A DNA stretch of 26,568 nucleotides from a virus (lineage: Duplodnaviria; Caudoviricetes), in the IMG/VR virus record IMGVR_UViG_3300028857_000025, positions 1-26,568 of that record. The stretch is one strand, 5' to 3'. Positions 2,354 through 26,568 of the stretch are shown here, piece after piece; position 1 is the first letter of the stretch, and each line of letters begins with the position of its first letter. The position numbers and the translations under genes were made by a program. Below the pieces are notes generated by a model, which was given only the letters and a program-made list of their open reading frames with translations, was not told the DNA's origin and made no database searches.

Positions 2354-2387
2354 AGGCTTCATCCCCCACTACGTGGGAGACTCAGTC

Positions 2388-2651
2388 ATGAAACACCTGG
2401 CCGTGATTTATAATCCTACTATGTATACTTGGTCGATGCTGTATTGCTCCCCGCATTACCCCATCGCCAATTCCTTAAGCACAGTAACGGTCAATGCCTA
2501 TAGTTTACCTGAGCTGGTCGCTGAGAAGGTCGCCATGCTCAGGCTGGTTGCGATAGGCGACACCGTGCCGGACATTGGAAAACGGGTGGACGAGCACAAG
2601 TTCGCCGTCCATCTTCCTGACGATTATGGGATAAAAGGGTTGGAGCTATGA
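2388..2651 (+). CDS. Hypothetical protein, paralog 1 of tandem triplet
   Basis: GGGAG SD upstream of ATG 2388; shares the AML(R/K)...(D/E)xVxx(I/V)G motif with the next two ORFs. Confidence 0.7.
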   Translation: MKHLAVIYNPTMYTWSMLYCSPHYPIANSLSTVTVNAYSLPELVAEKVAMLRLVAIGDTVPDIGKRVDEHKFAVHLPDDYGIKGLEL

Positions 2652-2908
2652 AAAAAGTTTATGTATCACAAGAGTTTGAACCTTTGACGGGTACCCCTTT
2701 CCGTAGGGTACAAGTAAGGTCGCCTACTGTATCAGGCTCAGTAGAAATATCTGTCGATGAACTGTCGTCGGAAATCACTGACCGTATCGCAATGCTTCGT
2801 ATAGCGCCCGAGGAGGATGAGGTCATCGGAGTCGGCAGGAATCTGGGCGGTGACTTGTACTTCCTCTACTTCCCCGATGACTTCGACTTGACGAGGTTGC
2901 GGCCATGA
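2648..2908 (+). CDS. Hypothetical protein, paralog 2 of tandem triplet
   Basis: ATGA overlap with the previous ORF; contains RIAMLRIAPEEDEVIGVG. Confidence 0.7.
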   Translation: MKKVYVSQEFEPLTGTPFRRVQVRSPTVSGSVEISVDELSSEITDRIAMLRIAPEEDEVIGVGRNLGGDLYFLYFPDDFDLTRLRP

Positions 2909-3165
2909 CACTGCGTATCCACGTCAATTCCAAGGGAGATATCTACAGCTACACACGGCTTGACCTTATCTCCCTTGCGCTGGATGACCCGCTTACACCG
3001 TTGGTGATGGGTAATCTAGCGATGTTAAAATTAGCCGAGGTCGGTGATACGGTGGCCGATATTGGTGTTAAACTAACGCCATCTGTGTTCATTTGCTGCG
3101 AACTCTCACCCGGCCATAATCCTACCATTGAGGATATTTTGATTTTTATTAAGGCCCTTTCATGA
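2905..3165 (+). CDS. Hypothetical protein, paralog 3 of tandem triplet
   Basis: ATGA overlap; contains NLAMLKLAEVGDTVADIG. Confidence 0.7.
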   Translation: MTLRIHVNSKGDIYSYTRLDLISLALDDPLTPLVMGNLAMLKLAEVGDTVADIGVKLTPSVFICCELSPGHNPTIEDILIFIKALS

Positions 3166-3359: not shown

Positions 3360-3558
3360 GTCCCTATTCTGCCACTTCGACGAAGCCCGGGGCATCTGCC
3401 TCGGCTGCTTCAGAACCCGCTATGACTTACGGCATTGGACGGGATATAACGATATTTTAAGGCAGAAAGTAATGATGCGTTCTTTTGAGCGCATGGATGA
3501 TTTCTTTATTGTAAATGAGCAGTTCTTTAATCGAAACCTTGACCATTACGACGGGTGA
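3328..3558 (+). CDS. DUF1289-like small Cys-cluster protein
   Basis: TPC...C..DEARGICLGCFRT..DL..W matches the DUF1289 pattern (SPCxxxC...GxCxGCxRT...W). Confidence 0.65.
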   Translation: MATYRISTPCESLFCHFDEARGICLGCFRTRYDLRHWTGYNDILRQKVMMRSFERMDDFFIVNEQFFNRNLDHYDG

Positions 3559-3567
3559 GGGTATTAT
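3539..3567 (+). promoter_or_regulatory. Putative sigma70 promoter upstream of pentamer array 1
   Basis: TTGACC (3539-3544), 17-nt spacer, TATTAT (3562-3567). Confidence 0.55.
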
Positions 3568-3575
3568 ATGAACCC

Positions 3576-3685
3576 TAAGCGCTGCCTTGCCCTGCTTAGC
3601 CTAGCTTAGCGATGCGCTGCAAAGCAAAGACTAATTAATTAGTGGTCTACACTCTCTGACGAGAGTGTTTTCCAGTAACTAATTA
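3576..3685 (+). repeat. Pentamer array 1: (NNWGC)x10 + AAAGA + hairpin H1
   Basis: TAAGC GCTGC CTTGC CCTGC TTAGC CTAGC TTAGC GATGC GCTGC AAAGC (3576-3625). Hairpin ACACTCTC-TGAC-GAGAGTGT (3649-3668) lies inside an outer stem TAATTAGT/ACTAATTA (3636-3685). Confidence 0.9.
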
Positions 3686-3696
3686 TAAGGTGTCTT

Positions 3697-4005
3697 ATGT
3701 CCTATTTAACGCCCGAAGGGCGAATCAAAAAGCAAATCAAAGCTATACTGGCTGAGTATGGGGTATATTATTTCATGCCAGCGCCCGGGTTTACTTGTAA
3801 AGTAGGCGTTCCAGACTATATATGCTGCCTTAATGGGCATTTCATAGCCATCGAAGCCAAGGCCGGGCGCAAGCTGCCGACGCTGCTGCAACAACGTGAA
3901 CTTGACTTAATCAACGCCGCAGGCGGCGTGGCTTTGGTGGTTAACGCCGACAACATACACGCTTTTCCCCTCATACTACAAGAGATAATGAAATGCAACT
4001 ACTAA
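3697..4005 (+). CDS. VRR-NUC domain nuclease
   Basis: TPEG.IK, GVPDYI, FIAIEAKAG, PTLLQ, INAAGG motifs of phage VRR-NUC proteins. Confidence 0.85.
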   Translation: MSYLTPEGRIKKQIKAILAEYGVYYFMPAPGFTCKVGVPDYICCLNGHFIAIEAKAGRKLPTLLQQRELDLINAAGGVALVVNADNIHAFPLILQEIMKCNY

Positions 4006-6791
4006 CTCTGGACGCAGAAACTTTTTATGCAAAAGATTATTCCCTAAGTAAGCTGACGACCGAGCAATATATAACAGATGACCGCTTCGAGGTTATCGGT
4101 GTATCCACCAAGATTAACAACGAGCCCGCACAATGGTTCTCCGGAACATTTGATGAGACGAAAGCATACCTAAACCAATTTGATTGGGATGATATTGCAT
4201 TAGTAAACCACAATAGTCTATTCGACTCAAGCATCCTTGGCCTGCGCTTCGGTATCCACCCTAAGAAGCTCATCGACACGCTAAGTATGTCAAGAGCAAT
4301 CCATGGCATCGAGGTCGGGGGCAGTCTGGCCAAGCTGGCTGAGCATTACCAGCTGGGTGTCAAGGGCACTGAGGTCATCAATGCCTTGGGTAAACGTAAA
4401 CAAGACTTTACTACTGAAGAACTAGCGCGCTATGGTGAGTACTGCAAGAACGACACCGAGCTAACGTACAAATTGTTTTACAAACTACTGCCGCACTTTA
4501 CTAAATCTGAATTAGACATTATTGATATCACCCTGAAGATGGCCACACGACCGTTGTTGGAATTGGATAAAGCCGTGCTGACCGCACACCTTGCCGACGT
4601 GCAAGCTAAAAAACAAGCGCTCATGGACAAGGTCATTGTCTCTCGAAAAGAGCTGATGTCCAACGTCAAATTGGCGCAACTGCTGATAGACTGTGGCGTG
4701 GAGCCGCCAATGAAGCTGTCGCCGACTACCGGTAAGCCGGCCTATGCGTTCGCTAAAACAGACGAGGGCTTCAAAGCATTACTTGACTCTGATAACCTTA
4801 TGGTACAAACTATTGTTGCTGCTCGGTTGGGTGTTAAATCAACGCTTGAAGAAACGCGATGTGAAAGGGTTATTGGCATTGCAGAAAGGAACAGGTGTTG
4901 TCCTTTCCCGCTGAAGTATTACAGTGCCGCGACAGGGCGCTGGGCGGGGGCAGATAAAATCAATGTCCAGAATTTCCCGCGTAAGTCGCCGTTAAAGCGA
5001 GCGTTCAAGGCCCCCGAGGGTTATGTTATTCTGGGCGCGGACTTAAAACAAATCGAACTGCGCGTGGGCCTCTGGCTGTCGTCGGAGTGGGAGAAACTGG
5101 ATATCCTGGCAGGCGGGCTGGACTTGTATAAAGTCTTCGCCTCAGAGGTACTGGGTGTTGCCTATGATGAGGTCACAGAAGACCAGCGCTTTATTGCCAA
5201 GACCTCCTGTATCGCAGAAGGACAGCTTGTCCTTACCCCAAGGGGTTTAGTGCCTATAGAAAACATTTTGGTAGACGATAGAGTATGGGATGGGGTAGAA
5301 TGGGTCTCACATGATGGGGTCATTTACCAAGGGGAGAGAGATGTCATCACATACCAAGGACTTACAGCCACTACCGACCATATTATATTTACGCAAACTG
5401 GTGAGACCCGCCAGTTCGGGGATGCCGCCAATTTATCAGCGCGTCTCGCTACTACCGGAGATGATAGGCGCCCGCTTAAATTCATGGGAGATAATCAGTA
5501 CCGAGATACAACAAACAGTGAAATCGGGGAGCATAAAGATACATGTGCGCTGCGTTTGTGGCAGAGAGCAGTGGGCGTATGTAGAGGCCATTATCAGAGG
5601 GCAGTCCAGACGATGCAAGCCTTGTGCAACACGAACTCGGCACCAAAGGCAAGGTCATCTGATTGTCTGGGACAAGGTTACGGAGCTTATACAAAAACGG
5701 GCAACAGCTATGCAACAAAGATGCTGCAATCCTATGGACAAAGGCTACGCCAATTACGGAGGACGAGGGATTCAGTTTTTGTTTGGCTCAACGAAAGAGT
5801 GTGTAGAGTATATCAAAACGTTGCCTCTCTGGGATTCCGGGTTGGAGGTGGACCGAATCGACAACAATGGACACTATGCAGTAGGGAACTTGCGTATGGT
5901 GTCCCGCAAGGTACAGACCAGCAATCGTCGAAATACGATGTGGATTTCGTGGCGAGAGGAAATGCTTCTGGTAGCGGACTGGGCAGAATCCCCTTACGCA
6001 CTGAGAGTAACCTGCAAGTATGTTCAGCAGGGTTTAACGGGGGAACAAATTATCCAGACCGCATGGGACTCAGTGGCGAAGAAATGCAAGAATTGGCGGG
6101 GGATAAAAAGAAAGTTAGAGTCTATGACATATTAAACGCCGGCCCTAGGCATCGCTTCACGGTGTCTAACGTGTTAGTCCATAACTGTCTGTCATTGGTT
6201 TTTGGGGTGGGCGCGGCGAAGCTGCAAGCGGCTATTCTCTCGGGTATAGGTTTGGATGTGGGCATCGTCGAAAGTAAACGGATAGTGGAATTTTACCGAG
6301 ACAACCACCCCGGTGTGAGAGCAGCATGGTCGGCGTGTGGTAACGCTATTAAGTTATTAACCACAGGCGGTGAGGGGATGATACTAACCGATAATTTAAT
6401 CAAGGTCGAAGGGCGCAAGGGTATCCGGCTACCGTCAGGACTGTATTTAAAATACCCTGAGCTACAGTATTCTGAAGATGCGCAGACCCGGAAGCGGGAA
6501 TATAAATACAAAATTAGAAGCAGTTGGGATAGATTGTACAGCGGTAAGTGTTTTAACAATATTACTCAGGCAACTGCACGCTGTATCTTTGCTGAGGCGC
6601 TACCCAAAATCAATAAGCATTACCCTATTGTATTATTGATTCACGACGCCGCCTATGTCCTGGTGCCGGAGGGGGGTGTAGAGGAGGCGAAGCAGATTTT
6701 AGAAGAAATCATGTGCCAGCCGCCGGACTGGATGCCGGATATTCCCTTGGAGGTTGAGTTTCATTATGGCCGAACTCTTTTCGATTGTTAG
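3993..6791 (+). CDS. polA: Family A DNA polymerase with 3'-5' exonuclease domain, intein-containing precursor (932 aa; ~606 aa after splicing)
   Basis: Exo motifs LDAET, HNSLFD, YCKND; TGRW; motif A DLKQIELR; motif B RFIAKTS/CLSLVFG split by the intein; motif C IHDA. Confidence 0.93.
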   Translation: MQLLTLDAETFYAKDYSLSKLTTEQYITDDRFEVIGVSTKINNEPAQWFSGTFDETKAYLNQFDWDDIALVNHNSLFDSSILGLRFGIHPKKLIDTLSMSRAIHGIEVGGSLAKLAEHYQLGVKGTEVINALGKRKQDFTTEELARYGEYCKNDTELTYKLFYKLLPHFTKSELDIIDITLKMATRPLLELDKAVLTAHLADVQAKKQALMDKVIVSRKELMSNVKLAQLLIDCGVEPPMKLSPTTGKPAYAFAKTDEGFKALLDSDNLMVQTIVAARLGVKSTLEETRCERVIGIAERNRCCPFPLKYYSAATGRWAGADKINVQNFPRKSPLKRAFKAPEGYVILGADLKQIELRVGLWLSSEWEKLDILAGGLDLYKVFASEVLGVAYDEVTEDQRFIAKTSCIAEGQLVLTPRGLVPIENILVDDRVWDGVEWVSHDGVIYQGERDVITYQGLTATTDHIIFTQTGETRQFGDAANLSARLATTGDDRRPLKFMGDNQYRDTTNSEIGEHKDTCALRLWQRAVGVCRGHYQRAVQTMQALCNTNSAPKARSSDCLGQGYGAYTKTGNSYATKMLQSYGQRLRQLRRTRDSVFVWLNERVCRVYQNVASLGFRVGGGPNRQQWTLCSRELAYGVPQGTDQQSSKYDVDFVARGNASGSGLGRIPLRTESNLQVCSAGFNGGTNYPDRMGLSGEEMQELAGDKKKVRVYDILNAGPRHRFTVSNVLVHNCLSLVFGVGAAKLQAAILSGIGLDVGIVESKRIVEFYRDNHPGVRAAWSACGNAIKLLTTGGEGMILTDNLIKVEGRKGIRLPSGLYLKYPELQYSEDAQTRKREYKYKIRSSWDRLYSGKCFNNITQATARCIFAEALPKINKHYPIVLLIHDAAYVLVPEGGVEEAKQILEEIMCQPPDWMPDIPLEVEFHYGRTLFDC
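5208..6185 (+). mobile_element. Intein (326 aa) in polymerase motif B
   Basis: Block A CIAEGQLVLTPRG, block B TATTDH, block F/G VYDILNAGPRHRFTVSNVLVHN, followed by Cys+1. Removal restores motif B. Confidence 0.93.
5311..6135 (+). CDS. HNH-type homing endonuclease in the +1 frame inside the polymerase intein (true start uncertain: 5311, 5341 or 5461)
   Basis: MIGARLNSWEII...RCVCG...CKPC N-terminal module; MQQRCCNP...YANYGGRGI; LEVDRIDNNGHYAVGNLRMVSRKVQTSNRRN, the typical phage HNH-family signature. Confidence 0.85.
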   Translation: MMGSFTKGREMSSHTKDLQPLPTILYLRKLVRPASSGMPPIYQRVSLLPEMIGARLNSWEIISTEIQQTVKSGSIKIHVRCVCGREQWAYVEAIIRGQSRRCKPCATRTRHQRQGHLIVWDKVTELIQKRATAMQQRCCNPMDKGYANYGGRGIQFLFGSTKECVEYIKTLPLWDSGLEVDRIDNNGHYAVGNLRMVSRKVQTSNRRNTMWISWREEMLLVADWAESPYALRVTCKYVQQGLTGEQIIQTAWDSVAKKCKNWRGIKRKLESMTY

Positions 6792-6910
6792 GCAGTGTCT
6801 GTATTGTTGGCTACACGGCTTTGGCATGAAAACTGGAGCGGAGATTTGGCTTAGACGCCAAGGCATCCGCGAAAATTCTAACTATCATTTAGGCTCACAG
6901 AGGCGACCAC

Positions 6911-7117
6911 GTGAATGAAATAGAGATTAGTTTTCACAGTATTGAGTTAAGTATTTTTTATAATATCGACCCCAAGATTGGCTTGAATATTTTGTATATC
7001 TACCATTTCGATGAGGAAATCTCCTGTTATCTTAATTTCTACGCGGTTTCGGAAATCAAACAGGCGATTTGGGAGCATCTCGATTCTCCTGATACTCTTT
7101 CAATAGCAAATCAATGA
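6911..7117 (+). CDS. Hypothetical AT-rich protein
   Basis: 68-aa ORF with GTG start preceded by GAGG; no recognisable motif. Confidence 0.45.
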   Translation: MNEIEISFHSIELSIFYNIDPKIGLNILYIYHFDEEISCYLNFYAVSEIKQAIWEHLDSPDTLSIANQ

Positions 7118-7219
7118 GTTGTGTTAGGGGGAGTCCCAAATCTAATGATAGCTGCTTAAGGTTTTTGTGTGTCTGAACCTTAACCAGCAGAGAAACATAT
7201 TTTTTATTCATATATAAGG

Positions 7220-7247
7220 TTGCGTATTAAATTAGGGGGTGTATAAT
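7220..7247 (+). promoter_or_regulatory. Putative sigma70 promoter upstream of the triple pentamer-array locus
   Basis: TTGCGT (7220-7225), 16-nt spacer, TATAAT (7242-7247), with an AT-rich UP-like tract upstream. Confidence 0.55.
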
Positions 7248-7289
7248 ATTATATATGAAATTTATAGAGGGGGTTAATTTATGTGAGTC

Positions 7290-7614
7290 AAAGCTATGCA
7301 ATGCTTAGCCGTGCACTGCGATGCTGAGCGATGCCGTGCCTAGCTATGCTCTGCGGAGCAATGCAAAGCCTAATTAATTAGGGTACTGAGTCTTCTCACG
7401 AGGGCTTAGTGCGGTAATTAATTTACCAAAGCGCTGCTGTGCCTTGCTATGCGAAGCCATGCGGAGCAATGCAAAGGCTATTTTAATAATAGCGTACTAG
7501 CCATTCCAACGAGTGGTTAGTGCGGTATTGTACCACTGCGATGCAGTGCGATGCCTTGCAGTGCCAAGCTTAGCATAGCACAGCGAAGCAAAGGCCGTGC
7601 CTTTTAGGCACGGC
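7290..7614 (+). repeat. Composite locus: array 2 (x16) - hairpin H2 - array 3 (x9) - hairpin H3 - array 4 (x11) - GC hairpin
   Basis: NNWGC units at 7290-7369, 7428-7472 and 7535-7589. H2 GTACTGAGTCTTC-TCAC-GAGGGCTTAGTGC (7383-7412); H3 GTACTAGCCATTC-CAAC-GAGTGGTTAGTGC (7494-7523); terminal GCCGTGCCT-TTT-AGGCACGGC (7594-7614). Confidence 0.9.
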
Positions 7615-7636
7615 ACCCTATTTTTAGGAGAATCAA

Positions 7637-8326
7637 ATGTCAAAAATGTTGCCGTGGAGTTATTCGGGGCTAAGCCAATTTCAAGTATGCCCGTTGCAAT
7701 TCTACGAGCATCGCGTACGTAAAAGCGTACCGTTCATAGAGACCGATGCGATTAAGTACGGCAAAGCCCTGCACAGCGCGGCGGAGTTTTACATCAAGTC
7801 CAACATGCCCTTGCCTGCCGAGTTTGCGTTCATGCAGAGCTACCTGGATAAGCTAATAGCGTTGCCGGGCAAAAAATATGTCGAGCTACAGATGGGCATA
7901 GCTATCAAAGATTGGGCGTTTGTCCATTGTGATTACTGGGATTCAAGCTGCTGGTATCGGGGCGTCAGTGATTTTATTTCCGTTGACCACGATAATGAGA
8001 AAGCTTACCTGGTCGATTTTAAGACCGGTAAGAGTGCAGCCTATGCCGACACCACCCAGTTGGCATTACTGGCGGCGCTTATTTTTCTGCATTTCCCGAA
8101 GGTCAAAACGGTCAAAAGCATGCTGTTGTTCGTCAAGGCTGGACAAATTGTCAAAGCAGAGTATGATTTTGCCAGTCGGTTTACAGTGTTTGCGCATCTG
8201 AATCAGGACTTAAAACGCCTGAAAGCGGCGTACGAAAGTAACGTGTGGAATCCAACGCAGAACAATTTCTGCAAGCGCTGGTGTGCGGTACATACCTGTG
8301 TACATAACGGAGAATATAGTGAGTGA
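7637..8326 (+). CDS. PD-(D/E)XK nuclease (Cas4/RecB-like exonuclease)
   Basis: AGGAG SD; WSYS, N-terminal CP, G..LH, D...VDFKTG, QL and a C-terminal CKRWC....C cluster (Fe-S-like). Confidence 0.85.
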   Translation: MSKMLPWSYSGLSQFQVCPLQFYEHRVRKSVPFIETDAIKYGKALHSAAEFYIKSNMPLPAEFAFMQSYLDKLIALPGKKYVELQMGIAIKDWAFVHCDYWDSSCWYRGVSDFISVDHDNEKAYLVDFKTGKSAAYADTTQLALLAALIFLHFPKVKTVKSMLLFVKAGQIVKAEYDFASRFTVFAHLNQDLKRLKAAYESNVWNPTQNNFCKRWCAVHTCVHNGEYSE

Positions 8327-8540
8327 GGAAGAGGTAGCGTACTTAACGCTGGAGCATCTGAAAGCTATCCGCAAGACCGGCGAGCGTACCGCAGAGGACG
8401 TGAAAGATATCATACACCGTGTGTCCTCACTTGAGAGGTCAACGGCATTACTACACCTTGATTTAGCTCAAATCAACTATCGTCTGGATACTTTCGATGG
8501 GCGCTTGGGGCATATCGAGAAACGATTGGAGTTAGAATGA
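8319..8540 (+). CDS. Hypothetical coiled-coil protein (likely GTG start 8319)
   Basis: GGAG SD before GTG 8319; heptad-like RLDTFDGRLGHIEKRLELE. Confidence 0.6.
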   Translation: MSEEEVAYLTLEHLKAIRKTGERTAEDVKDIIHRVSSLERSTALLHLDLAQINYRLDTFDGRLGHIEKRLELE

Positions 8541-8782
8541 ATGAACTACCCACAAACGGCCCCGGCAAATACGATGATATTTGTACGGTGGCGCGAGAAA
8601 GAACCGATGCGCAAGCCGCCATTGTTATTATAATTAATGGCGTGTTGGGCAGTGGTTTCTCACTACAGTCGGAACATCCGGATGTAGTAGTCCAACTACC
8701 CGATATGCTTGAAACAATGGCTAAAGAAATACGTGAAATAATTACTGAGGAGAAGGCAGATGCCGTACAAAGACATGAATGA
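8537..8782 (+). CDS. Hypothetical phage protein
   Basis: ATGA overlap, 81-aa ORF in operon context. Confidence 0.65.
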   Translation: MNELPTNGPGKYDDICTVARERTDAQAAIVIIINGVLGSGFSLQSEHPDVVVQLPDMLETMAKEIREIITEEKADAVQRHE

Positions 8783-9023
8783 CCGCGACCCGTCACACGA
8801 GGCCCAGGTCGAAAAGAAAAACCCCAAAGCCGTGGCCGCACGCAAGAAACGGCAGCAGGCTAGACAATTGTACGATAAACTCGATATCCCTAGAAAAGGT
8901 AAGGATATTGACCATATTAAGGGCACCGAAGCCGGCAACGCCAAGAGCAATCTCAGGCTACAGACGCCGTCACAGAACCGGTCATTCCCACGTAATTCAA
9001 ATCACACTGCAAAGAGGAAGTAA
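8760..9023 (+). CDS. Small HNH endonuclease
   Basis: KGKDIDHI...GN.KSNLR....SQNRS HNH core; AGGAG upstream. Confidence 0.8.
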   Translation: MPYKDMNDRDPSHEAQVEKKNPKAVAARKKRQQARQLYDKLDIPRKGKDIDHIKGTEAGNAKSNLRLQTPSQNRSFPRNSNHTAKRK

Positions 9024-9024
9024 C

Positions 9025-9237
9025 ATGCAAATATCAACCAAGTCAGTGATATCACTGGCAGAGGAAGCGGGGCTCCCGCCCTCTTTAATCGAGCGCCACA
9101 CCGATGCTTTAACGCATTTTGCACTCCGCCTGCGCATGGCAGAACGGCGCGTTTGTCGTAATAAGCTGCGCAACTGGACCATAGACAAGTCCCTGAGCAA
9201 GCCGCCGCTACTTGAGGCGCTGACGGAGCATGATTGA
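9025..9237 (+). CDS. Hypothetical protein (start at ATG 9025 rather than 8779)
   Basis: GAGG SD at 9014-9017; begins right after the HNH stop and overlaps the helicase start. Confidence 0.6.
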   Translation: MQISTKSVISLAEEAGLPPSLIERHTDALTHFALRLRMAERRVCRNKLRNWTIDKSLSKPPLLEALTEHD

Positions 9238-11875
9238 GATAATACATGATAAGGTGTTATCCGTCACCACGGATAGCCCTGACGACATTACAACAGTAAT
9301 AGACAAGTACAAGATAGACAATGGCAAAGTGCTCATCCCCTTTAATCTGGGGAATGTTCACATATTAAAAAACATGGGCTTTACGGTACCGTCGCCCATT
9401 GAGACTCGGTATGGGTGGCCTGGACTCCATAAACCCTTTTCGCATCAGCGCAGTATCGCTTCGTTTTTGACCTTGAATAGGCGGGCGTATAACTTTGGCG
9501 AATTAGGAATTGGCAAAACGAAAAGCGCTATCTGGGCTGCCGACTACCTACTAAGTATAGGTGCTATACGGCGTGTATTGGTTATCGCGCCGCTTAGCAT
9601 CCTCGATTCTGCATGGAAGCAGGAGATATTCAGGACAGTGATGCATCGGTCTGTTGATGTGGCGCATGGCACAAAGGAGAAACGCGAGGCAATAATCAAT
9701 AGTAAAGCTGAGTTTATACTTATCAATTATGATGGCGTCGAGATTGTGATTGACGCTTTGGACCGAGGTAACTTTGATTTAATCATAATTGATGAGTGCT
9801 TTGTAGCTGGGACACGAGTTCTTACGCCTATTGGTTTTAGAGCTATTGAACAAATCGTAGAAGGTGATATAATAGAGACAAGTTGGGGGCCAAGACCCGT
9901 AACCAAAACGTTTCATAAACAATCATCCAACATAGTTGAAGTCGAGTTTGAAGATGGTATCAAAATTACCTGCACAGAAGAGCACCCTTTCTCAACCCGA
10001 AATGGTTGGGTCGCCGCAAAAGACCTCCTTGGTGAAATATGTACTACATCAAGAGAATTGTCACACCTGCGGGACGCCGTTCGAGCAGAAGGTGTTTGCC
10101 AACCAGAAGGCATCTCACTATTGTTCTCGCGCATGTTGGAAAGAGTCGTACTATGTAGATTTGGTGTGCGGGCATTGCGGAAAAAAGTATCGAAAGGTAA
10201 AGAGTTACTTAAGAACCAACCCTGCAAAATATTGCAGCACAAAATGTACGGCGCAAGCGCGCTCTGCAAAAGTTATGGGGGAGACAGTTATGTGTCCGGT
10301 CTGCGGAGGGGAGCATTTTGTACCCCACAGAGTGTTGCGGTATCGTCCAGCATTAACCTGTTCCCGTTCCTGCGCCAGAAAGTTAGTGTGGCAAACAGAG
10401 CGAAAGCGGATGATGGATGGCGTACAGAAAGCAGCGGAGAAGCATCGGGGCCAACCCTCACCTCTCAGGGGGATTCCCCATACAGAAGAGCGCAAGCAAC
10501 AACAGCGTGCGCTGGCAGTAGAGTTGGGGAGTCGGGAACCGTTCATGCGAGTGCGGGGCGGCAATGGTACGGGTATGTCAAGAGTAGAGTTACTAATGCG
10601 CTCAATACTCCCAGAAAGTTTCCAATACAACTATATTGTAAAGACATTACAAAAGCGTGGAAGCGGGTATCCCTATCACTACAAGCTGGATTTCGCAGAC
10701 CCTTTACAGATGATTTGTTTAGAAGTAGACGGGTACAGCCACAATACAATACAGCGTCAAGAACAAGACAGGAAGAAAGAGGCGTTGCTTCAGGACTTAG
10801 GGTGGTCAGTGTTACGCGTATCCAACAAGGATGTCCTCGCGATGTTTGGAATCTGGAAGTAGCGGGCCCTCATGATTATATCGTTGAGGATGTGCTAGTC
10901 CATAACTGCAACTACATAAAGAACGTCCAAACCCGCAAGCACAAGTTCATTAACAAGTTGATTAAAGCGGATACCTGGTGCTGGCTAATGACCGCTACAC
11001 CGGCTGCGCAGAGCCCTTGTGATGCCTATGGTCTGGCGCGTATGATAGACCCTAAATCAGTGCCTCGGTCTTATGGTGCATTTAGGGAGATGGTGCAGTA
11101 TAAAATCAATATGTTTATGTGGATAAATAAACCCGATGCAGAGCGAACAGTACACAGAGTTTTACAACCCGCAATTAGATTTACTAAATCAGAATGTTTG
11201 GATTTACCTGAGCTATTATATGAGACGCGTGAAGTACCTCTGACCGCACAGCAAAACAAGTATTACAAACTTCTAAAAAAGGAAATGATGATTCTCGCTG
11301 CGGGTACAACGGTCACTGCGGCGAACGCAGCGGTTCTGATTGGAAAGTTGTTGCAAATTTCAGCGGGCAACTGTTATGATGAACGTGGGGATATTATTGA
11401 GTTTGATATCTCCAACCGATTCAGAGAGCTGTGTGATATCATCCGTGAGACGCGTAACAAAACGATAGTGTTTGTGCAGTTTAGGAACTCCATCGAGCGA
11501 ATCATGCGGATGCTGCAGGATGAAGGCATTACTTGCGAGGCCATTCACGGGAAAATCCCCATGAATAAGCGGGATGTCATCTTCTCTGATTTCCAAAACA
11601 AACCCGACCCGCAAGTGTTAATCATCCAGCCGCAAGCTGCGGCACACGGTGTGACATTGACAAAAGCGGATACGACAATATGGTTCGGGGTACCCATGTC
11701 CTTTGAAATTTACCAACAAGGGAATGGGCGTACGCACCGCGCCGGACAACGCAACCAATGTACTGTTGTCCATTTGATAGGTAGTGATGTTGAGAAGAAA
11801 GTATTGAACGCGTTGGACAAAAAGAATATGTCCGCAACGACTCTATTGGCATTATTTAAAGAGGTAATAAAATGA
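9230..11875 (+). CDS. SNF2-like SF2 helicase, intein-containing precursor (881 aa; ~511 aa after splicing)
   Basis: Motif I GELGIGKT, VIAPLS, INYDG, motif II IIIDE/CN split by the intein, MTATP, HGVTLT, Q..GRTHRAGQ. Confidence 0.92.
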   Translation: MIEIIHDKVLSVTTDSPDDITTVIDKYKIDNGKVLIPFNLGNVHILKNMGFTVPSPIETRYGWPGLHKPFSHQRSIASFLTLNRRAYNFGELGIGKTKSAIWAADYLLSIGAIRRVLVIAPLSILDSAWKQEIFRTVMHRSVDVAHGTKEKREAIINSKAEFILINYDGVEIVIDALDRGNFDLIIIDECFVAGTRVLTPIGFRAIEQIVEGDIIETSWGPRPVTKTFHKQSSNIVEVEFEDGIKITCTEEHPFSTRNGWVAAKDLLGEICTTSRELSHLRDAVRAEGVCQPEGISLLFSRMLERVVLCRFGVRALRKKVSKGKELLKNQPCKILQHKMYGASALCKSYGGDSYVSGLRRGAFCTPQSVAVSSSINLFPFLRQKVSVANRAKADDGWRTESSGEASGPTLTSQGDSPYRRAQATTACAGSRVGESGTVHASAGRQWYGYVKSRVTNALNTPRKFPIQLYCKDITKAWKRVSLSLQAGFRRPFTDDLFRSRRVQPQYNTASRTRQEERGVASGLRVVSVTRIQQGCPRDVWNLEVAGPHDYIVEDVLVHNCNYIKNVQTRKHKFINKLIKADTWCWLMTATPAAQSPCDAYGLARMIDPKSVPRSYGAFREMVQYKINMFMWINKPDAERTVHRVLQPAIRFTKSECLDLPELLYETREVPLTAQQNKYYKLLKKEMMILAAGTTVTAANAAVLIGKLLQISAGNCYDERGDIIEFDISNRFRELCDIIRETRNKTIVFVQFRNSIERIMRMLQDEGITCEAIHGKIPMNKRDVIFSDFQNKPDPQVLIIQPQAAAHGVTLTKADTTIWFGVPMSFEIYQQGNGRTHRAGQRNQCTVVHLIGSDVEKKVLNALDKKNMSATTLLALFKEVIK
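9797..10906 (+). mobile_element. Intein (370 aa) in the helicase DExx (Walker B) motif
   Basis: Block A CFVAGTRVLTPIG, block B TCTEEHPF, block F/G VWNLEVAGPHDYIVEDVLVHN, followed by Cys+1. Confidence 0.93.
9936..10862 (+). CDS. Zn-finger + DUF559/Vsr-like endonuclease in the +1 frame inside the helicase intein (start uncertain: 9936, 9954, 10002 or 10032)
   Basis: Three CxxCG...CSxxC repeats, a NUMOD3-like GIPHTEERK segment, and the catalytic region YKLDFA...CLEVDGYSH...DRKKEALLQDLGWSVLRV. Confidence 0.85.
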   Translation: MKSSLKMVSKLPAQKSTLSQPEMVGSPQKTSLVKYVLHQENCHTCGTPFEQKVFANQKASHYCSRACWKESYYVDLVCGHCGKKYRKVKSYLRTNPAKYCSTKCTAQARSAKVMGETVMCPVCGGEHFVPHRVLRYRPALTCSRSCARKLVWQTERKRMMDGVQKAAEKHRGQPSPLRGIPHTEERKQQQRALAVELGSREPFMRVRGGNGTGMSRVELLMRSILPESFQYNYIVKTLQKRGSGYPYHYKLDFADPLQMICLEVDGYSHNTIQRQEQDRKKEALLQDLGWSVLRVSNKDVLAMFGIWK

Positions 11876-12051
11876 CAGCAAGCGAAATAGAAGATTTTAA
11901 TGATTTATTATCTGATGCTGAGATGAACGCCAGCACGGATTGGGAACTCGAATTCACCGGTAGTATGAGGGCGCATTATAAAAAATATGGCGATGACACC
12001 TATGTGTCCGCCAAGCAATTACATCACCTGGAGAAGATTGCAAATGTGTGA
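11872..12051 (+). CDS. Hypothetical 59-aa protein (not in ORF track)
   Basis: GAGG SD, ATGA overlap with the helicase stop; MTASEIEDFNDLL...WELEFTGSM...SAKQLHHLEKIANV. Confidence 0.65.
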   Translation: MTASEIEDFNDLLSDAEMNASTDWELEFTGSMRAHYKKYGDDTYVSAKQLHHLEKIANV

Positions 12052-12163
12052 GACGTTACATTTGATATCCATTGTACTGCTTATTGGCGCTATCGGTATG
12101 ATGTGGGTGCTACACAGTGTAGGCAAGGCGCTGAATAAACAAGATGAGCGGGATAAGAGTTGA
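12044..12163 (+). CDS. Small putative membrane protein (39 aa)
   Basis: GGAG upstream; MCETLHLISIVLLIGAIGMMWVLHSVGK..., one hydrophobic helix with a charged tail. Confidence 0.5.
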   Translation: MCETLHLISIVLLIGAIGMMWVLHSVGKALNKQDERDKS

Positions 12164-12188
12164 CAAACTAGCTTTACAACTGTATAAT
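12160..12188 (+). promoter_or_regulatory. Consensus sigma70 promoter
   Basis: TTGACA (12160-12165), 17-nt spacer, TATAAT (12183-12188). Confidence 0.85.
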
Positions 12189-12222
12189 AATCTCACAGTC
12201 AACAACTAAACAGGACAAGACT

Positions 12223-12615
12223 ATGCCCGATGTAGAAAAGATAGTATCCGTCTATCTGAAAATCAGAAACAAGAAAGCGGAAATCACCAAGGCTTATGAA
12301 GCGCAGATAGCAGAGCTTGACGCTAAACAAGATATGCTCCAAAGCGCATTGCTTGATTTGTGTAAAGAACTGGGCGTTGAATCAGTTCGTACAGAATCCG
12401 GCACTGCCTTTAGGACTATCAAAGAACGAGTCTTCGTATCGGATTGGGCAGCTGTAGAGCAATTCATCTACGACAATGACGCGTTTGATTTGGTCGAGAA
12501 AAGGCTTGCCCAGAACGCGGCTAAGTCATGGATAAAAGACTTCCCAGACAAACCTATCCCGTCTGTGGTTGTAGACAGAAAGTTTACTATAACGGTTAGG
12601 AGAGGTAAGCCATGA
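12223..12615 (+). CDS. Hypothetical phage protein with N-terminal coiled coil
   Basis: AGGA SD, first gene after the consensus promoter; 130 aa. Confidence 0.8.
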   Translation: MPDVEKIVSVYLKIRNKKAEITKAYEAQIAELDAKQDMLQSALLDLCKELGVESVRTESGTAFRTIKERVFVSDWAAVEQFIYDNDAFDLVEKRLAQNAAKSWIKDFPDKPIPSVVVDRKFTITVRRGKP

Positions 12616-12998
12616 GCGATTATTCTAATAATGAACTGTTACATCCGGACCTTCCTGAACCGGACATTTTCTTAACCGAAAAAGAAGTCAGGGAAATTTT
12701 AGGGTTATCCCGGCAGTCTTGTTATAATATGCGCCGAGCCGGCATCTTCACCAGCCACTATATCAAAGGCAAAGTGAAATACTCGGCCAAAGAAGTCGAA
12801 GCGTACATTGAGCGCAAATCATTGCCTGATATCCGTGTGACGCCAACAATCAGAACGCGTGCCAAACCCGGCGAACCGAAGAAGGAAAGAGTTTATACCA
12901 AGCCTGCCCCGTCTGTTGCCAAGATGAGCAAGCGCACCCCACCCCCTGCTACGATGCCAGAACCATCGTATGAGGACTTTGATAATTACTTTATATAA
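12612..12998 (+). CDS. Excisionase/MerR-like (HTH_17-type) DNA-binding protein
   Basis: FLTEKEVREILGLSRQSCYNMRRAG...GKVKYSAKEVEAYI. Confidence 0.75.
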   Translation: MSDYSNNELLHPDLPEPDIFLTEKEVREILGLSRQSCYNMRRAGIFTSHYIKGKVKYSAKEVEAYIERKSLPDIRVTPTIRTRAKPGEPKKERVYTKPAPSVAKMSKRTPPPATMPEPSYEDFDNYFI

Positions 12999-13007
12999 GA
13001 GAGCACC

Positions 13008-13985
13008 ATGAGCAACTTAAGCATATTTAAAAACGGCGGCGGCGTCCCTGCCCATCTTCAAAAAAGAGAGCTGTCTGCCGCCACCAAAGCCTTGATGGGT
13101 GGTTTTGAAAACCGCCGTATCTCTATCCGGGGCGGGGTCTTCCGCAAGGTCATCAATGGTCAGGAGGTGGGTTCCATCCCCGAACGGGCACTGAACGTGG
13201 TCATTGTTGGCGTCGCCGAGCATACTTCCCGGCAGTATTACAAAGCCGCCTATCAGGAGAATGCCGACCCGGTGGCACCGGACTGCTACAGTGCTGACGG
13301 CATCACGCCGATGGCAACAGCGACGGCGATTCAAGCAGCCACCTGCGCCGCCTGTCCACAGAATATCGCAGGCTCAGGCCAAGGTGATTCCAAAGCCTGC
13401 CGCTTCCAACGCCGCATTGCGGTGGTCTTGGAGAAAAACCTGGAAGATGGTGAGGTTTATGAAATGACGCTGGCAGCGACCAGTCTGTTTGGTGGCAAGG
13501 GCAAGCCTGACCCCGACAAGATGGGCATGCGCCAGTACGCCAACTTTTTGGGTGGTTACGGCGTCAACATCGACGCCGTGGTCACTGAATTGCGCTTTGA
13601 TTTGGACGCCGCCACCCCGAAATTACTGTTCGCGGCATTAAGACCGTTAGAGACGGATGAGCTGTTGCTGGTTGAGGAATATTCCAAATTGCCGGAGACT
13701 ATCCAGGCTATCACATACAGCTTTGGTGGGGTGGTGGTGAAACCGGCGGCTGCCGAATTGCCCTTTATCCAGCCTCGCCCAGCTCCTGCCCCCGCAGCTG
13801 CGTCAGTGCCTGAGCCAGAGCCCGTCGTTCCGGCACGCACAAGGGTCACTCGAAATCGCCCCGCCGCAGCCGCTGCGCCTGCCCCTGAAGTCATTCCGGA
13901 GCCGATACGCCGTGAAAGCCACGCCGCGCCGCAACCCGCCTCGACAAATATTGATGAGCTGCTATCGGAGTGGGGCGACGAGTGA
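13008..13985 (+). CDS. Putative ssDNA-binding/annealing protein
   Basis: Replication-module position; Cys cluster (PDCYS..CAACP..KAC), Pro/Ala linker and acidic aromatic tail IDELLSEWGDE typical of phage SSBs. Confidence 0.6.
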   Translation: MSNLSIFKNGGGVPAHLQKRELSAATKALMGGFENRRISIRGGVFRKVINGQEVGSIPERALNVVIVGVAEHTSRQYYKAAYQENADPVAPDCYSADGITPMATATAIQAATCAACPQNIAGSGQGDSKACRFQRRIAVVLEKNLEDGEVYEMTLAATSLFGGKGKPDPDKMGMRQYANFLGGYGVNIDAVVTELRFDLDAATPKLLFAALRPLETDELLLVEEYSKLPETIQAITYSFGGVVVKPAAAELPFIQPRPAPAPAAASVPEPEPVVPARTRVTRNRPAAAAAPAPEVIPEPIRRESHAAPQPASTNIDELLSEWGDE

Positions 13986-13991
13986 TATAAT
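13983..13991 (+). promoter_or_regulatory. Putative extended -10 promoter upstream of array 5
   Basis: TGATATAAT matches TGnTATAAT. Confidence 0.5.
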
Positions 13992-14000
13992 TTTTCTTCC

Positions 14001-14075
14001 ATAGCGATGCGATGCCTAGCCTAGCTTAGCGTTGCGATGCGATGCTATGCAGTGCAAAGGCCACTTTAAAGTGGC
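14001..14075 (+). repeat. Pentamer array 5: (NNWGC)x11 + AAAGG + palindrome
   Basis: ATAGC GATGC GATGC CTAGC CTAGC TTAGC GTTGC GATGC GATGC TATGC AGTGC (14001-14055); GCCACTTTAAAGTGGC at 14060-14075. Confidence 0.9.
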
Positions 14076-14081
14076 AAGAAC

Positions 14082-14105
14082 GAGCGGCTTAGGCCGCTCC
14101 TTTTT
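14082..14105 (+). terminator. Putative intrinsic terminator before the primase gene
   Basis: GAGCGGC-TTAG-GCCGCTC followed by CTTTTT. Confidence 0.65.
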
Positions 14106-14126: not shown

Positions 14127-16925
14127 ATGGACCCACATGATTTCCTCAGCTCCATCCTACCCAACACCGGCCCGTACTGTTTCACCCTCATTAAGAACGG
14201 CCTCGTTAATCAACAATTCATTGATGCTATCCCCACTGATGCCGAGCTCGTAGAGTTCGCCAACGACTACGCCGACCACGATATTTATTTCGCCGTCGCC
14301 AGCTTCCAAACCAAAACCAGCCGCACCCAAGCCAATGTCGCCCAACTTAAATCCTTATGGATTGATTTGGACGTCGGCGGCAAATCAGCCTATGCTACCA
14401 AGAAGGATGCCAAACAAGCGCTTGATAAATTCGTCGCTGCTGCCGGGCTTCCTGCACCTACGCTGGTAGACTCCGGTGGTGGTGCACATATCTATTGGCC
14501 ACTAACACAGGCTATTGATATCCCTGAGTGGAAGGCGTTGGTTCTGGCATTACTAAGCAAAGCGACGGAGCACGGGTTTAGCATTAAAGACATCGGTGTT
14601 TCCAAAGACAGCGCCCGCATTCTACGGGTTCCCGGAACAACTAACCATAAGTTCGACCCACTGCGACTCGTCGCCGTTATCAAGACTGGCACACCAACCG
14701 ACCCGACTGTACTGGGGAGTTTGCTTAGCGTCGGCGCACCCATCCCGAATAATCCCAAAGTTAGAACGAATCTAACTTCACAGGCGGTAAGTAAACTCTC
14801 TCCGTTAACCCGCGCCTTGATGTCTCACCAAGGCCAGCAATACGGGCAGGTGATTACCCGGTCGATGCAGGGAACAGGTTGTGTGCAGTTGGCTAATGCT
14901 TATATCAATCAGGATGATTTAACGGGTATGCATTGGTGGAGCGTGATGTCTATCCCGCAGTTCACCGAGCAACGCCAGGAAGCGGTGCATAACCTCTCCT
15001 ATCAGCACAGCAACTATTCAATCGAAGCCACCTTGCTTAAGGCCGAGCGCACCGACGGGCCGTATGCCTGCGCCAAGATAAGCGAGCATCGTCCGGAGCT
15101 CTGCACCGCCTGCCCTCATTACGGGAATATCACTTACCCTTTTTTGCTCGATAGGACCCCCCGCCCGGAGCAGGTCCACCCACTCAATGAAGACATTGCC
15201 CGCAGCGGCTTACCCCCCATAGTTTATCCGTATTTACCCGGCGCGCGGGCGGGTATTTATGTTAAACAATTTATCCCTAACAAAGACGGCGACGGTGGCT
15301 CCATGGCCATCAAACACGTCTACAATCATACCTTTTACGTGTCAGGGCGCTGCCTTGACCCGCACGAGGGAGAGCTGGTCCACATGAAACTGATACGCCC
15401 CCACGACGGTGTTAAGGACTTTTCCGCGCCGTTATCCGAGATTACCGCCAAGGAGAAATGCAGGGAGCACTTCTCCAAACAAGGCATGGCCGCAGATGCG
15501 TTTAAAATGAAGATGCTGATGGAATACACCACCGAGTTTTGCAGTTACTTACAAGAGATCGACAAAGCCGACAATATCCGTGTCCAGTTCGGTTGGCATG
15601 ACAATGACACCTGCTTCATTGTCGGCAACCGGGAGATTCGCAAAGACGGCATCTATTACTCAATGCCCTCCAACGATACCCTGCAAGCCTCTGTCCAGTT
15701 TACCAAAGTCGGTACCTTGGCGGCATGGCAATCGGTCGCTCAGCGCTACGCAGGGCCTGATAATGAGGTACGGGCATTTGCCTTAATGATAGGCTTGGGC
15801 TGCCCGATGTTCAAATACTTGGGTCACGGCGGCGCTATCCTGCACTTGACCAACACACTATCGGGTGTCGGTAAGTCTGCCGCCCAAGGCTTGGCATTGA
15901 GCGCCTGGGGTCACCCCGACAAGGGCATGAGTCTGATGAAAGACACCCTGAACATGCGTCTGCATCGCCTGGGTGTGATGAACAATGTGGTGTTCTGCAT
16001 GGATGAAATCACCCAGATGACCGCCGAAGAAGTCGGTACCCTGGCGTACTCGATTAGCCAAGGCCGAGGCAAAGGCCGCATGGAGGCGTCGGCCAACCGT
16101 GAGCGGGCCAATAACACCACCTGGAGCGTGCCGTGCATTACCTCGGGCAACGCCAATATCCATGACGTCTTAAAAGCCAACAGCATGAACTCCGATGGCG
16201 AGGTCATGCGGGTGCTGGAGATGCGCGTCGAGCCCATCACCGGCATCACCAAGGAAGAGTCTGACCGACTGTTTATTGATGTCCTGCAGAACAACTACGG
16301 GCATGCGGGGGAAATCATTGTCCAGTATATCCTCAACCATCGGGAGGAGTGCTTCACGCGTCTGAAGGCCATCCAGAAAGAGTTTGATTTGGCCATGGGC
16401 TACCTTAACCCCGAGCGCTATTATTCATTGCTCACAACCACAGCCTTATGGGGTGGGGAGATTGGCAACATGCTCGGCCTGATTGATATCCCGCTGGCGC
16501 CTATTGTAGATTACTTGATGAAACAAAACACAGACACCCGTAGCGAGGTGCGTACGCCTGAGCAAATATCGGGTAATACCATCGGGACATTTATCAACGA
16601 GCACGCCGGCAATCATACCTTGGTGATTGACATGCGCCCGTCGAATATCCCCGGTGACCTACGCCCGGCGGTACAAATGCCGCGTGGCGAGCTGATGATA
16701 CGCATTGAAACCGATACCAAAATGATTTATATCACCACTACCAGCCTGCGCAGTTGGTGCAGCAAGAAGCGGGTGTCGTTCAATGACACCGTCGAGGAGC
16801 TCAAGACCAAAGGTGCTTTGATAACCACCGGTCAAGTGAAGATGGCCGAAGGCACGCAGACATCATCGCCCGCAGTACGGGCGCTTATTTTAGACAAGAC
16901 AATTTTAGATGAGATGGGGTTATAA
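14127..16925 (+). CDS. Primase (AEP/RepB-like N-terminus) fused to DUF927/helicase-like domain
   Basis: WIDLD, DSGGGAHIYW and RILRVPGTTN primase motifs; Cys cluster CAKI..CTACPH; QFGW, Walker A SGVGKS, MDE, GRGKGR, W...ITSGN, NNYGHAG of the DUF927 type. Confidence 0.85.
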   Translation: MDPHDFLSSILPNTGPYCFTLIKNGLVNQQFIDAIPTDAELVEFANDYADHDIYFAVASFQTKTSRTQANVAQLKSLWIDLDVGGKSAYATKKDAKQALDKFVAAAGLPAPTLVDSGGGAHIYWPLTQAIDIPEWKALVLALLSKATEHGFSIKDIGVSKDSARILRVPGTTNHKFDPLRLVAVIKTGTPTDPTVLGSLLSVGAPIPNNPKVRTNLTSQAVSKLSPLTRALMSHQGQQYGQVITRSMQGTGCVQLANAYINQDDLTGMHWWSVMSIPQFTEQRQEAVHNLSYQHSNYSIEATLLKAERTDGPYACAKISEHRPELCTACPHYGNITYPFLLDRTPRPEQVHPLNEDIARSGLPPIVYPYLPGARAGIYVKQFIPNKDGDGGSMAIKHVYNHTFYVSGRCLDPHEGELVHMKLIRPHDGVKDFSAPLSEITAKEKCREHFSKQGMAADAFKMKMLMEYTTEFCSYLQEIDKADNIRVQFGWHDNDTCFIVGNREIRKDGIYYSMPSNDTLQASVQFTKVGTLAAWQSVAQRYAGPDNEVRAFALMIGLGCPMFKYLGHGGAILHLTNTLSGVGKSAAQGLALSAWGHPDKGMSLMKDTLNMRLHRLGVMNNVVFCMDEITQMTAEEVGTLAYSISQGRGKGRMEASANRERANNTTWSVPCITSGNANIHDVLKANSMNSDGEVMRVLEMRVEPITGITKEESDRLFIDVLQNNYGHAGEIIVQYILNHREECFTRLKAIQKEFDLAMGYLNPERYYSLLTTTALWGGEIGNMLGLIDIPLAPIVDYLMKQNTDTRSEVRTPEQISGNTIGTFINEHAGNHTLVIDMRPSNIPGDLRPAVQMPRGELMIRIETDTKMIYITTTSLRSWCSKKRVSFNDTVEELKTKGALITTGQVKMAEGTQTSSPAVRALILDKTILDEMGL

Positions 16926-26196: not shown

Positions 26197-26568
26197 CTAC
26201 TTAACTAACTTAAGCGCGCTCTTGGCAGAATTGTCCTCTATTCGCTTTGGTTGGTATTTATCATAGAGTATTGTTTTTACTTTGGCATTATCTTCAAGCA
26301 CTTCATATAGCTTGAGGTAATCATCCAGTACCCTTCCGCGTACCTCTATCATATCGTCAGACATCTCGTCTTTCTTAAGCATCTTAGGGAAACCGAACAG
26401 ATTACTCACAGCCTTGTTTACTACCGTATTAGCTTTGATGTAACTTAGCTCCTCTTTACTCAAATCATCTGGCAAAAGACGACTCAATGCTTCCATAGCT
26501 TCGAGTTGATGCTTCTTCGTCCCCGTGCGTAACTGGACTATCCTTAGTTGGTCTTCGAGATACTGCCA
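26197..26568 (-). CDS. Putative antirepressor-like/DNA-binding protein C-terminus (5'-truncated)
   Basis: The frame is open to the window edge (WQYLEDQLRI...EAMEALSR); YIKANTVVNKAVS..FGFPKMLKK resembles C-termini of phage Bro/KilA-type proteins; lower GC than neighbours. Confidence 0.5.
   Translation of the reverse strand, partial: WQYLEDQLRIVQLRTGTKKHQLEAMEALSRLLPDDLSKEELSYIKANTVVNKAVSNLFGFPKMLKKDEMSDDMIEVRGRVLDDYLKLYEVLEDNAKVKTILYDKYQPKRIEDNSAKSALKLVK

Follow-up and report, generated by a model that had tools for sequence, protein, structure and literature searches.

The 26,568-nucleotide stretch analyzed here (the window; positions 1 to 26,568 of IMG/VR virus record IMGVR_UViG_3300028857_000025, Caudoviricetes) carries five arrays of pentameric NNWGC repeats between its genes. 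What do these arrays do? Our analysis finds that they are real elements and very probably belong to a known family, the guide RNAs of the RNA-guided DNA-binding system VIPR. They have a WGC repeat, apparently stand alone without a vipr gene and are dispersed, and several lie beside a gene whose rival allele is apparently targeted.

Five arrays of NNWGC pentamers

The arrays are all on the plus strand, and their positions and unit numbers agree with those in a preliminary description of the locus:

3576 to 3625, plus strand, guide array A1, 10 WGC/NN units
7290 to 7369, plus strand, guide array A2, 16 units
7428 to 7472, plus strand, guide array A3, 9 units
7535 to 7589, plus strand, guide array A4, 11 units
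14001 to 14055, plus strand, guide array A5, 11 units

The arrays total 57 pentamers, every one of them NNWGC, with T in the third position in 34 and A in 23. Outside the five arrays, the longest NNWGC run in the window is three units. In 200 dinucleotide shuffles the longest run was two to four units, against 9-16 in the real arrays. The variable NN positions carry information. The arrays are not slippage microsatellites, as that description had also held. A sixth array of the same kind (A6, nine units) is found in the same phage outside the window. It sits between two virion-region genes, antisense to both, and has a promoter-like site (TTGCCA-17-TATTAT). The arrays of this phage are thus spread over four loci in total.

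Kinship with VIPR guide RNAs

The published VIPR guide consists of 9-16 pentamers, each with a fixed GGY and a variable NN, followed by a structured tail (10.64898/2026.04.26.720920, in the part available). One Vipr protein binds per unit, and the NNs pair with DNA while every third target base is skipped (10.64898/2026.04.26.720920 and 10.64898/2026.04.26.720927, likewise). None of the 57 window units is GGY, and all are WGC. The first paper includes YNNNG among alternative repeat consensus forms, which the window repeat fits, so the missing GGY marks a variant only. In the passages covered of a third preprint, WGT/NN, TGH/NN and other triplet arrays adjoin Vipr-like folds (10.64898/2026.10.21.760802).

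The pattern search proposed in the preliminary description was run on viral contigs, as eight WGC units ending in AAAG. It returned 85 stretches, kept as 84 loci, some of which represent one phage more than once or are simple microsatellites; 73 have varied arrays. At 41 of the 84 loci (repeats of one phage included), members of one protein family of 176-245 amino acids are encoded within 1.5 kb of a varied WGC array. The family profile matches PDB entry 36pp, 'SUSP1 Vipr protein', with an E value of 3e-45. A SUSP1 protein with 39% identity to one member bears H17, K33, R138, D177, W178 and R179 as named in the VIPR paper. The predicted model of one member (predicted local distance difference test score 96) matches Csm3/Cas7-type RAMPs. 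Two of eight bacterial genome loci, in metagenome-assembled genomes of Dechloromonas and Methylomarinum, combine AGC arrays, similar tails and Vipr.

The tails of the arrays provide additional evidence. The A2 and A3 tails align with Vipr-linked tails as three stacked hairpins, and 13 of 23 pairs show compensatory change in this alignment of 10 tails, hand-picked for the three-hairpin architecture and including two from the window.

The window arrays share with the SUSP1 type II vrRNAs (VIPR guide RNAs) of the two founding papers, as far as their available text goes, the 9-16 fixed-triplet/variable-NN pentamers, the structured 3' tail, the location in phage intergenic DNA and a one-nucleotide-skip code in codon register. 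They differ in the WGC triplet, the three-hairpin tail, the distribution over four loci and the lack of any vipr or vap gene found. They appear to target homologs of genes in the phage itself, whereas the targets in the covered text of those papers are satellites or prophage regulators. Taken together, we are highly confident that the arrays are vrRNAs with a WGC/NN repeat. The preliminary description knew of no function for such an element; VIPR guides, non-GGY variants and solo guides have since appeared in the 2026 preprints cited here. Its view of the arrays as RNA modules, each built of promoter, array and hairpin and bound by an oligomeric protein, is supported. Arrays of this type adjoin Vipr genes in other phages.

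Residue 177 of Vipr appears to follow the repeat type. Asp177 is present in none of 26 Viprs beside A-rich arrays and in three of four beside G-rich arrays (33 Vipr sequences with the loop resolved), at loci that were chosen by the WGC pattern and are related to one another. In one locus (L032), a Vipr gene with Asp177 adjoins G-rich arrays and a second Vipr gene, which lacks this residue, adjoins AGC arrays. These are possibly two orthogonal systems in one genome. Very long AGC/WGC arrays, with up to 36 units per run or many guides parted only by an AGGC step, occur in L007, L008, L070, L083 and L084, and resemble the staggered arrays in the part of the VIPR paper that was covered.

Guides spell neighboring genes, and the phage's own alleles mismatch

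The variable positions were decoded with the published skip, reading NN-x-NN-x as codons with the skip at the wobble base. A2 agrees with DNA polymerase A, encoded 740 bp upstream, in 12 of 16 amino acids. A5 decodes to an upstream gene of 325 amino acids, 315 bp away, at 10 of 11. A6 decodes, on the other strand, to the start of its adjoining gene at eight of nine. Each match has p=0.0005 (2000 unit shuffles, best amino-acid match within 1 kb), and none of 259 other phage windows reaches the score of any of the three. These neighboring sites are also the best in the genome for each guide. In the case of A6, the site overlaps both the start of the gene and the promoter of the array.

At the base level, the phage's own alleles match poorly, at 21/32 (66%) for A2, 17/22 (77%) for A5 and 13/18 for A6, because where the amino acids agree the own gene uses the other Ser, Leu or Arg codon family. 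Such family swaps are the only synonymous changes visible to a wobble-skipping guide. They are found at nine of 11 Ser/Leu/Arg positions for the three guides, against 4.5 expected from the phage's own codon usage (p=0.006). Compared to switch rates of 0.26-0.42 between relatives, p is 0.0002-0.009. A count over all six guides (14 of 19) was cut to this one, and A1, A3 and A4 were dropped as their sites are weak or ambiguous.

Array-free relatives fit the guides better. The L099 allele matches A2 at 26/32 (81%) and the L167 allele matches A5 at 19/22 (86%), with p=0.0003 each. The match cut-off in the VIPR papers, in the text covered, is 80%; both relatives' alleles lie above it and the own alleles for A2 and A5 below it. 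In DNA runs, contigs of relatives cover the A5 site. We consider it quite probable that the guides are aimed at relatives' alleles. The own sites in the window are as follows:

6504 to 6551, plus strand, own mismatched A2 allele in DNA polymerase A; 12/16 codons compatible, 21/32 bases, 4/4 Arg/Leu/Ser codons swapped
13653 to 13685, plus strand, own mismatched A5 allele in the 325-amino-acid gene; 10/11 codons compatible, 17/22 bases, 3/4 Leu/Ser codons swapped
3958 to 3987, plus strand, own counterpart of a weak A1 target, end of the small endonuclease gene; own allele 12/20, L097 allele 15/20, p 0.013
7649 to 7690, plus strand, beginning of the PD-(D/E)XK nuclease gene; amino-acid match to A3 over six codons on the other strand (p 0.005); A4 has one of its two candidate sites here
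14235 to 14267, plus strand, own counterpart of the rival, better-scoring A4 target, primase N-terminus; own allele 14/22, L167 allele 17/22

An independent case in an unrelated phage

A complete AGC-type VIPR cassette is found beside the portal gene of a phage unrelated to that of the window (L051, positions 9361-10714). It is a cleaner homing-like test case than the window. The guide spells the end of the neighboring portal gene at 13 of 14 codons, and all three Ser/Arg codons are swapped. In this phage's own portal gene, 29 of 31 Arg codons are CGN. The decoded 24-base pattern has 19 exact hits, and all 19 are portal homologs at that position. The relatives' portal alleles match at 24-27 of 28 bases, against 21 of 28 for the own allele. 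Neither Vipr nor an array was found in the fetched flank of any of the 19 portal relatives, two of the flanks reaching less than 1 kb downstream. Similarity to the relatives ends about 45-80 bp past the target in the nine that were aligned. Judged from these alignments, the cassette looks like an insertion just past its target.

No vipr gene is found in the window phage

To obtain more of this phage, overlapping records were used and 71,690 bp were assembled. Part of IMG/VR contig 3300030838_000016 is 100% identical to the window, and a 71,832-bp metagenome contig contains the same region. CheckV completeness values point to a phage genome of about 71-72 kb. A search with hmmsearch --max in six frames of the overlapping pieces (71,690 bp) found no vipr gene; the best E value was 0.46, against 1.5e-50 for the SUSP1 control. 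The glycine-loop motif is absent from all 37 phage open reading frames (ORFs) of 140-300 amino acids. The arrays are therefore probably solo guides. Solo guides in vipr-null phages and satellites have been published (10.64898/2026.10.15.759431, in the part covered).

The polymerase-nuclease site that holds A2-A4 varies among relatives. It is empty in L099, contains other genes in L127, and holds a full vipr in L097. L099 and L167 have the same gene order as the window phage and no array. In L097, a close relative, the complete VIPR occupies positions 3919-5100 and encodes a 207-amino-acid Vipr of another clade with Thr at position 177. Its arrays are GGY with scattered WGC units, and its tails are similar to those in the window. 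L097 is a candidate donor of Vipr in trans. An L097-type contig and the window phage co-occur in one metagenome run (X6), which may be where the DNA of the window came from. No targets of L097's own guides were found. Among 77 further relatives, none has a WGC-type array and two have GGY VIPR.

Just 5' of A2, positions 7268-7286 contain a ribosome-binding-like GAGGGGG followed by ATG TGA, a start directly before a stop. It may be what is left of a lost gene, for instance vipr, or else a minigene.

Promoters, tails and transcription

A consensus scan of the window gave 31 promoter-like sites, compared to 22.6 +/- 5.3 in shuffles, which is weak evidence alone. The following sites lie upstream of the arrays:

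3539 to 3567, plus strand, sigma70-like promoter of A1, TTGACC-17-TATTAT, 8 nt upstream of the array; a consensus match only
7220 to 7247, plus strand, promoter-like site of the A2-A4 cluster, TTGCGT-16-TATAAT, 42 nt upstream of A2; under the consensus-scan threshold
13983 to 13991, plus strand, promoter-like element of A5, extended -10 (TG-n-TATAAT) with no good -35; overlaps the upstream stop codon

Judged by sequence match, A1 has good promoter evidence and A2 moderate evidence; that for A5 goes no further than an extended -10. The promoters are less uniform than originally described.

All five arrays end in GCAAAG(A/C/G)C, their tails start with AAAG, and each tail folds into hairpins with z-scores of -3.5 to -6.8, which confirms the reported arrangement:

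3626 to 3671, plus strand, A1 tail; AAAG, short hairpin, second hairpin and T run, z -3.5
7370 to 7427, plus strand, A2/A3 spacer, a three-hairpin tail by folding and tail alignment
7473 to 7534, plus strand, A3/A4 spacer, a three-hairpin tail alignable to tails of Vipr-linked arrays
7590 to 7624, plus strand, A4 tail; AAAG and a terminal GC-rich hairpin (7594-7614)
14056 to 14105, plus strand, A5 tail; AAAG, hairpin, terminator-like hairpin and T run

Within the A2 tail, the middle hairpin (7378-7398) contains a sequence run common to the hairpins that precede guides in the SUSP1 VIPR locus (L085, about 2240-2620), perhaps a shared processing signal. Rfam covariance models have no match at E<=1 in the window. 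Hammerhead or other ribozymes had been considered for the spacers. They were dropped, as there is no Rfam match and the spacers are three plain hairpins.

Scans for other targets

The window guides were compared with further sequences. At the base level, self-targeting with skips of 0-2 gave no match above 77%. Skips of 0-3 among the 84 array loci gave background only, apart from the own alleles; for skip lengths other than the published one, the comparison was at the base level only and gave no clear hit. The surroundings of Vipr genes in the eight bacterial genome loci also gave background. In the reverse comparison, the best match of guides from other loci to the window phage was 14/16, from a short guide.

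Exact patterns were also searched. The polymerase-shaped A2 pattern has no hits. The A2 exact pattern has hits in L128 and L129, which have no polymerase homology, spell the same peptide and are probably due to chance; the L128 match, the only one of the two that was translated, is in the portal gene of an unrelated prophage. The A5 pattern has two hits and the A6 pattern four, all non-homologous.

Proposed mechanism and alternative explanations

We propose that the solo WGC/NN guides load a borrowed Vipr and are aimed at relatives' sensitive alleles, while the phage's own codons mismatch. We regard this as the likely explanation. Small RNAs would be made early from the arrays and processed. 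They would load in trans onto Vipr from a co-infecting phage or a prophage, and the loaded Vipr would bind and silence the rival allele of a shared gene. The recoded own allele would escape through its mismatches. Being tightly linked, guide and immune allele would stay together when phages recombine, following the logic of intronless homing. In a mixed infection, the rival allele would be blocked and the block of guide plus immune allele over-inherited. The adjacent positions of guide and immune allele may reflect a need for joint inheritance, as is the case for free-standing homing endonucleases. True homing goes further. The cassette would insert beside a conserved gene, the rival allele would be blocked or broken, and the cassette would be copied with the recoded allele. 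Protein-free guide cassettes of 100-150 bp would then be an RNA-guided gene drive between phages. This extension is tentative, and we think it somewhat less probable than its absence.

The arrangement resembles that of free-standing homing endonucleases (T4 SegF; PMC13565253, in the part available), which lie beside a conserved gene, recognize a relative's allele, spare their own through substitutions and leave an empty site in relatives. A position beside the target, a differing own allele and empty relatives are found for A2 and L099, for A5 and L167, and for L051 and its 19 relatives. They are not found for A4 if its target is the primase. Unlike homing endonucleases, the recognition proposed here is by RNA and a borrowed protein, and no nuclease is linked to the guides. 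The solo vrRNAs of the preprint 10.64898/2026.10.15.759431 are similar in that a vipr-null phage needs a borrowed Vipr and the self-match is below the rival match. In its covered text, published solos occur in satellites or where vipr has been deleted, and their targets are vipr, other vrRNAs, satellites or REP elements. The guides of this phage instead adjoin and spell replication and virion-region genes. The preprint on non-canonical arrays (10.64898/2026.10.21.760802) has non-GGY triplets in common with the window. 'WGC' is absent from its text, as distinct from its figure logos, and the passages covered describe neither targets nor solo dispersed copies.

Several observations weigh against guides aimed at rival alleles. 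For none of the window guides did the searches turn up a perfect DNA target. Total scores against the own genome give p values of 0.99, 0.10 and 0.50 for A1, A3 and A4. The homologous site of A3 in close relatives matches at only 8-10/18, and its six-codon amino-acid match has no DNA-level support in relatives. The match of A4 to the adjacent nuclease is 16/22 in distant relatives and 12-13/22 in the two closest. The primase, at a distance of 6.6 kb, is a better fit for A4, though the 17/22 match in L167 was found after the fact, and adjacency is therefore not universal. In a survey of 151 Vipr-linked guides, from loci chosen through the WGC pattern and a small number of others, five match neighboring DNA at p<=0.01 (about 1.5 expected) and 146 have no neighbor match. 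Neighbor matching is therefore not a general VIPR habit. Neighbor matches were viewed in L023, L011, L034 and L007, and L097's guides are not among the five. Vipr-linked arrays are mostly AGC, whereas about 60% of the window units are TGC. No terminal repeat was found in the 71,690 bp, which leaves some room for a vipr gene. Four RNA runs are sparse, with three to four short contigs each, one overlapping 7563-7713, and transcription of the guides is something we infer. Vipr alone is reported to bind and silence DNA, not to cut it (10.64898/2026.04.26.720920 and 10.64898/2026.04.26.720927, in the text covered), and complementation in trans could make up for silenced replication genes.

No site elsewhere in the genome matches better than the own sites next to the arrays, the own A5 match reaches 17/22, and the A6 site overlaps a gene start and the array promoter. 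All of this would also fit autoregulation, in which the guides act on their own neighboring genes and partial pairing gives weak, tuned repression of replication genes when Vipr is present. We consider it unlikely, as own mismatches fall on Ser/Leu/Arg swaps above chance, empty-site relatives match better, and the L051 relatives exceed the own allele in the same way. A little less unlikely is that the RNAs are decoys soaking up a rival's Vipr, or relics of a deleted VIPR locus, with the gene matches reflecting past targets or local guide acquisition. Solo guides directed against VIPR are published (10.64898/2026.10.15.759431, as covered), L097 carries, in the place of A2-A4, a complete vipr together with GGY arrays and similar tails, and the lack of a perfect present-day target agrees with either version. 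However, 57 of 57 units are intact, with their own promoters and terminators at four separate loci. The satellite study in the same preprint reports, in the text covered, that mere competition for Vipr is insufficient, and a relic leaves the directional codon swaps in the own allele unexplained.

The preliminary description had favored regulation in cis like that by Bacillus TRAP, whose sites have about 11 (G/U)AG triplets with 2-nt spacers in RNA, the spacers carrying no code. The window arrays are similar in having about 11 triplets spaced by 2 nt, and they lie between promoter and gene at three loci with hairpins at the end, where a ring protein on the WGC triplets of a leader RNA might switch hairpins that control the downstream replication gene. 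Here the triplet is WGC and the spacers carry a code, in which the NN positions spell particular genes of the phage. Vipr genes are flanked by the same kind of repeat and tail, A6 is antisense to both of its flanking genes, and L099 and L167 keep the gene order without an array. The TRAP-like model is thus very improbable and we have set it aside in favor of guides aimed at rival alleles.

Other genes in the window

The window is a phage fragment encoding DNA polymerase A with an intein, the PD-(D/E)XK nuclease, a SNF2 helicase, a DUF927 primase and virion proteins. The polymerase gene (3993-6791) contains an insertion with an HNH nuclease ORF (5311-6135) in another frame of the same strand. 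The SNF2 helicase gene (9230-11875) has an insertion with an intein match and a DUF559 nuclease ORF (9936-10862), also in another frame of the same strand. The relative L127 has inteins at other positions. Protein-based homing is therefore common in this phage family. The small endonuclease gene beside A1 matches the phrog_93 endonuclease; VRR-NUC is the label that the preliminary description gives at this locus. No function was assigned in protein annotation to the 325-amino-acid gene upstream of A5.

Three tandem genes of 86-92 amino acids (2373-3165) are paralog-like, with a shared 'AML(R/K)...D...IG' segment and no Pfam match. Two antirepressor-like gene copies (26197-26568 and L054, positions 6457-7095) are 90% identical in their 3' halves and differ in their 5' halves.

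Significance

VIPR is newly described and has been proposed to be older than CRISPR, and its natural uses are barely mapped. The guide family is known; allele-directed use beside the own gene, as it appears from our sequence comparisons, was not found in print. 'Homing' and 'allele' are absent from the texts of 10.64898/2026.04.26.720920 and 10.64898/2026.10.15.759431, as distinct from their figures and target tables. A literature search for 2026 found no paper that joins VIPR with homing. The repeat logos (Fig. S17, Fig. S10) and target tables of the preprints, which lie outside the text covered, may already show a WGC/AGC consensus or neighbor-gene targets. Our analysis indicates that guides can be stand-alone cassettes next to the genes they spell, in the layout of homing endonucleases. 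For A2 and A5, both target and non-target alleles are in hand (L099 and L167 versus the own alleles). The pairing of A-first repeats with Viprs that lack Asp177, the residue that reads the first G, is a hint of orthogonal Vipr-guide pairs.

In the covered text of the VIPR papers, skipping of the wobble base is argued to block synonymous escape. The window phage apparently escapes by way of the six-codon amino acids Ser, Leu and Arg. If the homing explanation is true, swaps between the codon families of these amino acids would be a natural escape route from a wobble-skipping code.

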